A model generated the notes under the pieces. It had not been told where the DNA came from. It ran no database searches and saw only the letters and a program-made list of their open reading frames with translations. Source: Escherichia coli (GTDB lineage: Bacteria; Pseudomonadota; Gammaproteobacteria; Enterobacterales; Enterobacteriaceae). From it: a DNA stretch of 64,000 nt. The DNA lies in the NCBI RefSeq assembly GCF_024502345.1, contig NZ_JALDNN010000001.1; one strand, written 5' to 3'. Below, one piece after another: positions 57,385 to 59,409 of this stretch. The position numbers and the translations under genes are program-made. Position 1 is the first letter of the stretch. Every line of letters starts with the position of its first letter.

Positions 57385-57699
57385 TCTTTCCGCGTCTCAT
57401 CTTTATCGGTGAGACGCACCCTCAAAATTTCTCCTTCACTCTATAGTCTTTTCGCTTTACTCCCGTTCATTCAACTTAAGTCTCCATTTTTTTACATTAC
57501 TGCTATCTGTCAGACCTCCGTTTTTCTGTTGATAAAACACTCTTTTTGACGTTTTTACAGACTAATTGAGCGTGAAGTGTGCAAACGATAAAAGTGTGGG
57601 AAAAATTGTTTGACTTATAAGTCTCAGAAAGTAATATGTGCGCCACGCAGCGACGATGAGCGATAAACAAGTTCTTCGAAGCACTCGTAAGAGGCGTGT

Positions 57700-57792
57700 G
57701 GTGAGGTGGCCGAGAGGCTGAAGGCGCTCCCCTGCTAAGGGAGTATGCGGTCAAAAGCTGCATCCGGGGTTCGAATCCCCGCCTCACCGCCA
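57700..57792 (+). tRNA. serV: tRNA-Ser (anticodon GCU)
   Basis: GGTGAGGTGGCCGAGAGG...CTGCTAA...GGTTCGAATCC...CACCGCCA; long variable arm. Confidence 0.95.
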
Positions 57793-57795
57793 TTT

Positions 57796-57872
57796 GCATC
57801 CGTAGCTCAGCTGGATAGAGTACTCGGCTACGAACCGAGCGGTCGGAGGTTCGAATCCTCCCGGATGCACCA
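57796..57872 (+). tRNA. tRNA-Arg (anticodon ACG), copy 1
   Basis: GCATCCGTAGCTCAGCTGGATAGAGTACTCGGCTACGAACCGAGCGGTCGGAGGTTCGAATCCTCCCGGATGCACCA. Confidence 0.95.
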
Positions 57873-58007
57873 TATTCTCCGTAACCTTCAGCGATGAAGG
57901 TATGGAAGAGGTGGCGGTACTAACCGCAGGCACCAGGGAGAATAACGTTGCTTTAGCAACGGCCCGAAGGGCGAGCCGCAAGGCGAGTAATCCTCCCGGA
58001 TGCACCA
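57873..58007 (+). repeat. ~135-bp spacer repeat unit ending in a duplicated tRNA-Arg 3' fragment (unit 1)
   Basis: Ends ...AATCCTCCCGGATGCACCA, identical to the T-arm/acceptor 3' end of tRNA-Arg. Confidence 0.8.
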
Positions 58008-58071
58008 TCTCTTACTTGATACGGCTTTAGTAGCGGTATCAAAAAATCTGCAGTAAAGTAAGTTTCCCGAT

Positions 58072-58148
58072 GCATCCGTAGCTCAGCTGGATAGAGTACT
58101 CGGCTACGAACCGAGCGGTCGGAGGTTCGAATCCTCCCGGATGCACCA
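58072..58148 (+). tRNA. tRNA-Arg (ACG), copy 2
   Basis: Identical 77-nt sequence. Confidence 0.95.
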
Positions 58149-58210
58149 TCTCTTACTTGATATGGCTTTAGTAGCGGTATCAATATCAGCAGTAAAATAA
58201 ATTTCCCGAT

Positions 58211-58287
58211 GCATCCGTAGCTCAGCTGGATAGAGTACTCGGCTACGAACCGAGCGGTCGGAGGTTCGAATCCTCCCGGATGCACCA
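58211..58287 (+). tRNA. tRNA-Arg (ACG), copy 3
   Basis: Identical 77-nt sequence. Confidence 0.95.
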
Positions 58288-58422
58288 TATTCTCCGAAAT
58301 CTTCAGCAATGAAGATATCGAAGAGGTAGCGGAATTAACCGCAGGCACCAGGGAGGATAACGTTGCGCCAGCAACGGCCCGAAGGGCGAGCCGCAAGGCG
58401 AGTAATCCTCCCGGATGCACCA
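58288..58422 (+). repeat. spacer repeat unit with tRNA-Arg 3' fragment (unit 2)
   Basis: Near-identical to unit 1. Confidence 0.8.
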
Positions 58423-58485
58423 TCTCTTACTTGATATGGCTTTAGTAGCGATATCAATATCAGCAGTAAAATAAATTTTCCCGAT

Positions 58486-58562
58486 GCATCCGTAGCTCAG
58501 CTGGATAGAGTACTCGGCTACGAACCGAGCGGTCGGAGGTTCGAATCCTCCCGGATGCACCA
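58486..58562 (+). tRNA. tRNA-Arg (ACG), copy 4
   Basis: Identical 77-nt sequence. Confidence 0.95.
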
Positions 58563-58695
58563 TATTCTCCGAAATCTTCAGCAATGAAGATATCGAAGAG
58601 GTAGCGGAATTAACCGCAGGCACCAGGAAGGATAACGTTGCTTTAGCAACGGCCCGAAGGGCGAACGCCAGTGAGTCATCCTCCCGGATGCACCA
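58563..58695 (+). repeat. spacer repeat unit with degenerate tRNA 3' fragment (unit 3)
   Basis: Related to units 1-2; ends ...CATCCTCCCGGATGCACCA. Confidence 0.75.
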
Positions 58696-58842
58696 TCTTC
58701 TCCAAAAAATTTCCTTCAAAAATATCTCATTTTTAAATAACTACTTTATCCATTTCCTGAATTTTCTTCTCCTTCGCCATCAGCGACAAAATCAAGCAAT
58801 TACGCTAAAGTAGCGTCATATTTTTCGACTTGCGAGAAGACC

Positions 58843-59409
58843 ATGTACGAGCGTTATGCAGGTTTAATTTTTGATATGGATGGCACAATCCTGGATACGG
58901 AGCCTACGCACCGTAAAGCGTGGCGCGAAGTATTAGGGCACTACGGTCTTCAGTACGATGTTCAGGCGATGATTGCGCTTAATGGATCGCCCACCTGGCG
59001 TATTACTCAGGCAATTATTGAGCTGAATCAGGCCGATCTCGACCCGCATGCGTTAGCGCGTGAAAAAACAGAAGCAGTAAGAAGTATGCTGCTGGATAGT
59101 GTCGAGCCGCTTCCTCTTGTTGAAGTGGTGAAAAGTTGGCATGGACGTCGGTCAATGGCGGTAGGAACGGGGAGTGAAAGCGCCATCGCTGAGGCATTGC
59201 TGGCTCACCTGGGATTACGCCGTTATTTTGACGCCGTCGTCGCTGCCGATCACGTCAAACACCATAAACCCGCGCCAGACACATTTTTGTTGTGCGCGCA
59301 GCGTATGGGCGTGCAACCGACGCAGTGTGTGGTCTTTGAAGATGCCGATTTCGGTATTCAGGCGGCCCGTGCAGCAGGCATGGACGCTGTGGATGTTCGC
59401 TTGCTGTGA
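58843..59409 (+). CDS. yqaB: HAD-family sugar phosphatase YqaB
   Basis: 188 aa; HAD motif I FDMDGT near N-terminus. Confidence 0.92.
   Translation: MYERYAGLIFDMDGTILDTEPTHRKAWREVLGHYGLQYDVQAMIALNGSPTWRITQAIIELNQADLDPHALAREKTEAVRSMLLDSVEPLPLVEVVKSWHGRRSMAVGTGSESAIAEALLAHLGLRRYFDAVVAADHVKHHKPAPDTFLLCAQRMGVQPTQCVVFEDADFGIQAARAAGMDAVDVRLL

Follow-up and report, generated by a model that had tools for sequence, protein, structure and literature searches.

The window analysed here is a stretch of 64,000 nt of Escherichia coli DNA (contig NZ_JALDNN010000001.1 of assembly GCF_024502345.1), and the elements in question are three repeat units, designated A1, A2 and A3, which are interspersed in a cluster of tRNA genes. 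The region is the serV-argV-argY-argZ-argQ tRNA operon of E. coli, with alaS and csrA upstream and yqaB downstream, as in strain K-12. The following features were distinguished (RtT scores refer to an Rfam family discussed below, z to the folding energy of the unit):

57610..57637, plus strand: promoter-like site (TTGACT, 16 nt, TAATAT) 5' of serV, about 60 nt before tRNA-Ser; found by a consensus scan, a pattern match and not proof
57700..57792, plus strand: tRNA-Ser(GCU), serV (ARAGORN, Rfam; synteny with K-12)
57796..57872, plus strand: tRNA-Arg(ACG) copy 1, argV position (ARAGORN, Rfam)
57873..58007, plus strand: A1, tRNA-linked repeat, raV position, 135 nt (RtT 29-31.2 bits; fold z = -4.55); predicted 5' hairpin domain at 57876-57909, hairpin 2 near 57914-57927, predicted P1 5' strand at 57930-57943, predicted core hairpins P3-P5 at 57946-57984, tRNA-identical tail at 57989-58007
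58008..58071, plus strand: B1, ordinary inter-tRNA spacer, 64 nt
58072..58148, plus strand: tRNA-Arg(ACG) copy 2, argY position (ARAGORN)
58149..58210, plus strand: B2, spacer, 62 nt
58211..58287, plus strand: tRNA-Arg(ACG) copy 3, argZ position (ARAGORN)
58288..58422, plus strand: A2, tRNA-linked repeat, raZ position, 135 nt (RtT 26.9 bits; fold z = -6.91); predicted P1 5' strand at 58345-58358, 19-nt tail at 58404-58422
58423..58485, plus strand: B3, spacer, 63 nt
58486..58562, plus strand: tRNA-Arg(ACG) copy 4, argQ position (ARAGORN)
58563..58695, plus strand: A3, tRNA-linked repeat, raQ position, 133 nt, with a variant P5 hairpin (RtT 22 bits; z = -4.45); predicted P1 5' strand at 58620-58633, tail identical to the tRNA over 18 nt at 58678-58695
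58802..58826, plus strand: terminator-like hairpin and T-run in the gap between A3 and yqaB (which starts at 58843); pattern match only

The order of the array is Ser-Arg-A-B-Arg-B-Arg-A-B-Arg-A-tail. The initial annotation, made from the sequence alone, had reported four identical tRNA-Arg(ACG) genes after tRNA-Ser, and these were recovered by ARAGORN and Rfam as genes 100% identical to one another. It had also described units of approximately 135 bp after copies 1, 3 and 4, each ending in a copy of the tRNA 3' end. The units are real, with two small corrections, which concern the tail of A3 and the spacers. Each begins one base past the CCA of a tRNA-Arg, and the mean column identity of the three is 95%. 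An exact 19-mer of the tRNA 3' end (AATCCTCCCGGATGCACCA) closes A1 and A2, while the tail of A3 matches the last 18 nt only, with CATCC where AATCC is expected. The 18-mer of the tRNA 3' end is present in 7 copies in the window, compared with 0.00 expected (100 shuffles). Absent from the initial annotation was the second spacer type, B (62-64 nt), which precedes tRNA-Arg copies 2, 3 and 4. Since the terminator-like site lies past A3, all three A units fall within the presumed transcription unit. On the minus strand (57503-58719), long antisense ORFs of 98, 74, 156 and 138 codons run across the array and share a repeated motif; they are the translated antisense strand of the tRNA genes and should not be annotated as genes.

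A1-A3 are an already known object, namely the catalogued tRNA-linked repeats (TLRs) raV, raZ and raQ, as K-12 has the same architecture with nearly the same units and these names are listed for it. TLRs were first seen in 1978 (Egan and Landy), and the catalogue of Rudd (1999) contains 22 copies at ten K-12 loci (PMC8144298). They are defined by their last 18-19 nt, which repeat the terminus of the tRNA or rRNA that precedes them, and a strain table lists the deletion "argY/Z/Q, raQ/Z/V" among the 22 K-12 TLRs (PMC8144298). In the window, the A units lie directly 3' of a stable-RNA gene in a tRNA/rRNA operon, are identical to the upstream tRNA over 19, 19 and 18 nt, respectively, and are orthologous to raV, raZ and raQ of K-12 (same architecture, near-identical units). 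The finding of these units adds little by itself, because a catalogued repeat class was rediscovered.

The A units were found to be related to the Rfam family RtT (RF00391; the tyrT-operon repeat, rttR in K-12), which aligns with them end to end at E-values of 6e-4 to 0.4. Elsewhere, RtT scores reach 80-89 bits in Lys units of Photorhabdus, 54.8 bits in an Arg(CCG) unit and 52.8 bits in a Gln unit. According to the Rfam alignment, the Arg units and RtT have a common 3' half, composed of a hairpin (CGUUGC-loop-GCAACG), CCCGAAGGGCGA, a second small hairpin, GAGUAAUCC and the local tRNA tail. In the reciprocal search, a covariance model built from 19 Arg cores only, with the tRNA-specific strands excluded, found the K-12 tyrT RtT copies at 40.7 bits (E = 7e-9) and the TLRs of the E. 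coli Lys operon at E of about 1e-21. The 5' domain of RtT (GGAUGAGAAC...GGUUCGA, with an inner helix pairing with CGAAGGGCG) is not present in the Arg units, in which cmscan places non-canonical pairs and gaps over RtT model positions 15-60. Judged from sequence, the Arg units are a divergent short form of the RtT/TLR family, and by the Rfam criterion they are not RtT members.

The Arg unit also follows tRNA-Arg(ACG) in Salmonella, Klebsiella, Enterobacter, Kosakonia, Phytobacter and Brenneria. RNAfold z-scores of A1-A3 range from -4.5 to -6.9, and 0 of 200 shuffles folded as well. When a six-helix structure was applied to 27 distinct Arg units from 8 genera, 91% of cells were paired, compared with 30-47% with slid partners. 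Compensatory changes were detected in this set at ten pairs, located in the 5' hairpins H1 and H2 and in P5, and several positions show G-C/G-U alternation (e.g., UG:16/CG:11); the G-U alternates point to pairing on the sense strand, i.e., in RNA. Among 55 distinct cores associated with many tRNA types, covariation was observed in 5 of the 6 P3 pairs and 3 of the 3 P5 pairs, and 97-99% of cells were paired, in an alignment that was fitted to the model and whose loci were mostly chosen with a pattern fixing P4. By this structural model, the units are conserved, structured elements of RNA type. Variant units were noted in Klebsiella: the spacer past the first tRNA-Arg (L155, L156) carries a short degenerate core with a tail (TCACTCTACCGATTACTCCA) unlike tRNA-Arg, and in K. 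pneumoniae an extra truncated unit is placed behind some A units.

The tRNA-derived tail appears to be one strand of a helix. In the predicted fold of every Arg unit, the tail AUCCUCCCGGAUGC pairs with GCACCAGGGAGGAU, located approximately 46 nt upstream, to form P1, and ACCA is left free. The upstream strand, which lies just upstream of the core, is identical at 10 of 12 positions to the 5' strand of the tRNA-Arg acceptor stem fused to the 5' strand of the T stem, and P1 would therefore imitate a tRNA-Arg acceptor/T-arm minihelix. Such minihelices are the classical minimal substrates of RNase P and of the CCA-adding enzyme. Since P1 is invariant within the Arg family, it was tested across tRNA types. 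The cognate tail pairs with its own upstream sequence at -14.4 kcal/mol, compared with -11.2 kcal/mol for non-cognate tails (Wilcoxon p = 3e-10, a value that is indicative only and overstates independence, because the units are related). In 36 of 101 units, among them all Arg(ACG) units but one, the cognate tail ranks first among all tails. A strong signal was obtained for Arg-ACG, Arg-CCG, Gln, Tyr and Lys units and for one Asp unit. The corresponding identity test of the fused acceptor and T-stem strand over all tRNA types gave a weak result, with the cognate strictly best in 16 of 69 cases. We also considered, and rejected, a derivation of the 5' half of A from a decayed tRNA-Arg body, with its hairpins as remnants of the D arm and the anticodon arm. 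The idea seemed plausible on visual inspection, but the alignment scores with the tRNA-Arg body (10-14) are no better than the non-cognate mean (approximately 12-13; z from -1.2 to 0.7). Only the Lys units of Photorhabdus (z 6-15) and enterobacterial Tyr units (z up to approximately 5) resemble their cognate body. Neither ARAGORN nor the Rfam tRNA model called a cloverleaf, as tRNA or pseudogene, in the A units.

The core is not confined to tRNA-Arg(ACG). A scan of the genome collection returned at least 120 loci with the core. Among them are cores that lie 50-135 nt behind tRNAs for Lys, Tyr, Arg (four anticodons), Pro, Gln, Ser, Asp and Glu. Among the matches listed, the hosts belong to Enterobacterales, Chromatiales, Salinisphaerales, Alteromonadales and other Gammaproteobacteria, and the 14 nt past ...AUCC are in most cases the end of the upstream tRNA. 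The units of Photorhabdus consist of a 34-nt spacer, positions 1-58 of tRNA-Lys(UUU) (55 of 58 identical), a 64-nt insertion and an 18-nt tail; the insertion lies exactly between A58 and A59 of the T loop, and the units form 12-15 tandem copies. From this structure, the core seems to sit where the T loop of a copied tRNA would be. One such array is located at 5460-7866 of L037 (Photorhabdus caribbeanensis), and others were found in L042, L129, L130, L133, L134 and L141. Dispersed, multi-copy cores unlinked to tRNA genes occur in a Rhodanobacteraceae metagenome-assembled genome (MAG; L092-L096), in Tahibacter soli (L110-L113), in MAG 48_S62 (L145-L152) and in L033-L036, and they matched no Rfam family at the gathering threshold. 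These non-tRNA copies in Xanthomonadales-like genomes suggest that the module can move. They often lie beside REP-like palindromes (GTCATTCCCGCG...CGGGA).

The initial annotation read the duplicated tRNA ends as a signature of past unequal recombination, and proposed that copy number and unit arrangement be compared among strains. Both proved variable. In 13 sampled E. coli genomes, from which the details of the layout were read, the locus contains 2-4 tRNA-Arg genes, each followed by B alone (62-64 nt) or by A and B together (197-199 nt); past the last of them lie either 280 nt, made up of A and the operon tail, or only the 147 nt of the tail. The boundary of A gain or loss falls exactly on the 19-nt repeat: where A is missing, the tRNA CCA joins the sequence that normally lies 3' of the CCA of A. 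Unit counts were taken from 5426 complete genomes, of which 5356 (98.7%) contain the Arg-specific part of A (its first 75 nt), at 1-6 places each (median 3). Of the 5425 genomes with a match, only 2480 can be aligned at a single site to at least 80% of the length of the layout seen in the window. Within the window, A3 is a mosaic: it shows 0 differences from A2 over 57 positions of its 5' part and belongs to the A3 type of K-12 in its 3' part. This points to gene conversion or unequal exchange, and thus to an exchange of sequence between units. Units are probably added, removed and homogenised by recombination, with the B spacers, the tails of 18-19 nt and the identical tRNA genes as substrates, and this would account for the differences among strains. 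Individual rearrangements were also noted. The third spacer of E. coli O157:H7 (L007, L010) is a 102-nt hybrid in which the first hairpin of an A unit is fused to a B spacer; the hairpin has compensatory changes and a GUGA loop, and the hybrid lacks the core and the tRNA tail. The last A unit of E. coli strain A3, an isolate from a bat (L014), carries a 22-nt internal deletion, which takes most of the predicted tail-pairing strand and the first bases of the P3 hairpin.

The recombinational part of the initial interpretation thus stands, since the array is reshaped (2-4 tRNA-Arg genes, A present or absent at the repeat, mosaic copies). A reading of the duplicated ends as mere scars is not supported, however, given a tail that forms one strand of a predicted helix, the compensatory changes across genera and the core common with RtT and with repeats behind many other tRNAs. 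The earlier reading captures the dynamics of the array and misses the conserved, structured, tRNA-end-mimicking and RtT-related nature of the units.

We consider that A1-A3, i.e., raV, raZ and raQ, are probably folded mimics of the tRNA end, representing the short form of the RtT/TLR family and processed as CCA-ended RNA. According to the proposed mechanism, the units would be co-transcribed, on the strand of the tRNAs, as part of the operon transcript, and each would fold into two 5' hairpins followed by the closing helix P1 around a core of approximately 46 nt with three small hairpins. Because the 3' end of the unit resembles that of a tRNA, the maturation enzymes of the neighbouring tRNAs might excise and trim the unit: RNase E cutting past the CCA, 3' exonucleases halting at the CCA and, possibly, RNase P acting at the start of P1. 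The outcome would be the release of a stable, CCA-ended small RNA.

Several observations weigh against this interpretation. The expression, cleavage sites and stability of the units are all matters that we infer, and a literature search returned nothing on the expression of Arg units; in a mobilome preprint, the coverage of rttR is noted only as a probable artefact of RNA/DNA hybrids. The RtT gathering score of 45 bits is reached by none of A1 (29-31.2), A2 (26.9) and A3 (22). P1, P3 and P4 do not vary among the Arg units, and only other tRNA types and the folding energy support them. P1 contains two conserved mismatches or bulges. The units behind the cognate-pairing test are related, and the signal was absent or non-significant in Ser units, Glu units and most Pro units. 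In other lineages (e.g., L046, L054, L072, L086, L116), 19 of 54 long-form units are preceded, within the first 50 nt past the tRNA, by a strong terminator-like hairpin with a T-run, which argues against high expression there. Finally, units are dispensable position by position in natural E. coli strains, and a K-12 strain deleted for all 22 TLRs exists (PMC8144298); any function is thus non-essential.

One rival view, that of the initial annotation, would be that the units are ordinary spacer DNA, in which the tRNA 3' ends mark junctions of unequal crossing-over and have no function in RNA. The high polymorphism of the array, with indel boundaries that coincide with the repeats, the mosaic or homogenised copies, the loss of individual units from natural strains and the viability of a strain without any of the 22 TLRs are all in line with it. 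We nevertheless regard it as distinctly unlikely, as the unit is kept from E. coli to Brenneria with compensatory changes, its tail has a matching partner strand, the core is found behind at least eight other tRNA identities, mostly with the local tRNA tail, and at least one unit match is retained in 98.7% of the 5426 E. coli genomes. A different view, compatible with tRNA-end mimicry, treats the core of approximately 60 nt as a selfish module that is or was mobile or transplantable by recombination. It would insert into the T loop of a duplicated tRNA gene, and the disabled copy would decay to a minihelix-like remnant; the units would then persist by propagating and not by being of use to the cell. 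The near-intact tRNA-Lys of Photorhabdus, with its 64-nt insertion between A58 and A59, fits this well, as do the dispersed cores present in several copies on different contigs (Rhodanobacteraceae, Tahibacter and others) and the near identity of the core in the Arg and Lys units of E. coli, although both P1 strands differ between them. No transposase, integrase or target duplication was identified, though, an intact tRNA body is present only in Photorhabdus, where it may be a secondary hybrid formed via the common GGTTCGA motif, and the Arg units have no significant similarity to the tRNA-Arg body (z of approximately 0). On balance we see this module view as unlikely.

The initial annotation had further suggested that the tRNA 3' fragments can serve as integration targets. 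A 116-bp segment between 19-bp direct repeats of the tRNA 3' end does have the geometry of an element remnant (attL being the tRNA and attR the 19-nt fragment), and its presence or absence among strains is precise. Such a footprint, or a set of secondary attachment sites, is however very improbable, and the suggestion gained no support: the segment has no integrase, cargo or conserved ORF, no island is present, yqaB is directly next in all examined strains, the same conserved core adjoins many different tRNAs, and 50,697 phage records contained no attP-like copy of the tRNA-Arg(ACG) 3' end. A phage or plasmid origin was also rejected. BLAST matches of A1 in phages and plasmids are mostly misfiled chromosomal records. 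The pattern matches in viral contigs comprise 7 TLR-like copies on 6 contigs, the rest being chance matches in coding sequence; 3 of these TLR-like units lie visibly beside a Val/Lys tRNA operon. Partial core matches were also noted in records filed as plasmids (NZ_CP093469.1, 14 kb; NZ_OP378648.1; NZ_CP079601.1; CP052389.1, Klebsiella). That the units are genes for small basic peptides resembling Tpr, as annotated for the tyrT repeat, is scarcely credible, despite a 42-codon ATG ORF in A1 (57902-58030), a 23-codon TTG ORF in A2 (reading RQQRPEGRAARR) and the presence of tpr, a 'protamine-like protein', inside rttR in the K-12 annotation. The A2 peptide may resemble Tpr. The ATG of A1 is ATC in A2, A3 and most strains, in L120 a TAA directly follows the ATG, the variation tracks helix pairing and not codon positions, and across genera neither a start codon nor a reading frame is conserved.

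Beyond the Arg units, we tentatively propose, as a possibility rather than a probability, that RtT/TLR elements form one class throughout Gammaproteobacteria, 'T-loop-expanded tRNA minihelices', in which a three-hairpin module of approximately 60 nt is placed in the T loop of a copy of the upstream tRNA, and whose products would be CCA-ended mimics matured by, and maybe competing for, the tRNA-processing or tRNA-binding machinery. TLRs are an old loose end, described in 1978, and none of those in tRNA operons has a known function (PMC8144298). Our analysis adds (i) the tail as one strand of a predicted helix mimicking the tRNA acceptor/T-arm, (ii) a core common to many tRNA identities and many gammaproteobacterial orders and (iii) the finding that in Photorhabdus the core is inserted precisely into the T loop of tRNA-Lys genes that are intact. 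Should the elements act as tRNA-end decoys or processing modules, they would represent a side of tRNA-operon biology that is widespread and has been overlooked; otherwise, they are a selfish repeat of unusual durability. This family-level picture is the part worth following up. For annotation, the units should not be taken for prophage attachment scars, and the tRNA-Arg copy number at this locus should be expected to differ among E. coli strains.

Compared with known systems, the A units correspond most closely to raV, raZ and raQ of K-12, which have the same locus and order and a near-identical sequence; the window copies carry a few substitutions and homogenised 5' halves of A2 and A3, and nothing essential differs. 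RtT RNA, like the Arg units, lies directly 3' of a tRNA whose end it copies, whereas the Arg units lack its GGAUGAGAAC...GGUUCGA domain and one more hairpin and carry instead two unrelated 5' hairpins outside P1. With a tRNA minihelix they have in common a P1 of approximately 13 bp made of acceptor-like and T-stem-like strands and ending in the discriminator base and CCA; they differ from it in the three-hairpin domain of approximately 46 nt that replaces the T loop and in the two conserved irregularities, the resemblance being structural only. RrA, RrB and RrF, located behind 5S rRNA (rrnA, rrnB and rrnD), belong to the same repeat class, with a 3' end that copies the upstream stable RNA, and are the only TLRs experimentally shown to be transcribed and processed (PMC8144298). 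Unlike the Arg units, they copy the 5S rRNA end, sit between two terminators and bind Hfq and CsrA, and the CsrA-binder prediction for the 19 TLRs of tRNA operons is <0.01 (PMC8144298). The terminator-like hairpin placed between tRNA and long-form unit in other lineages recalls this position of rrA, rrB and rrF between two rRNA terminators.

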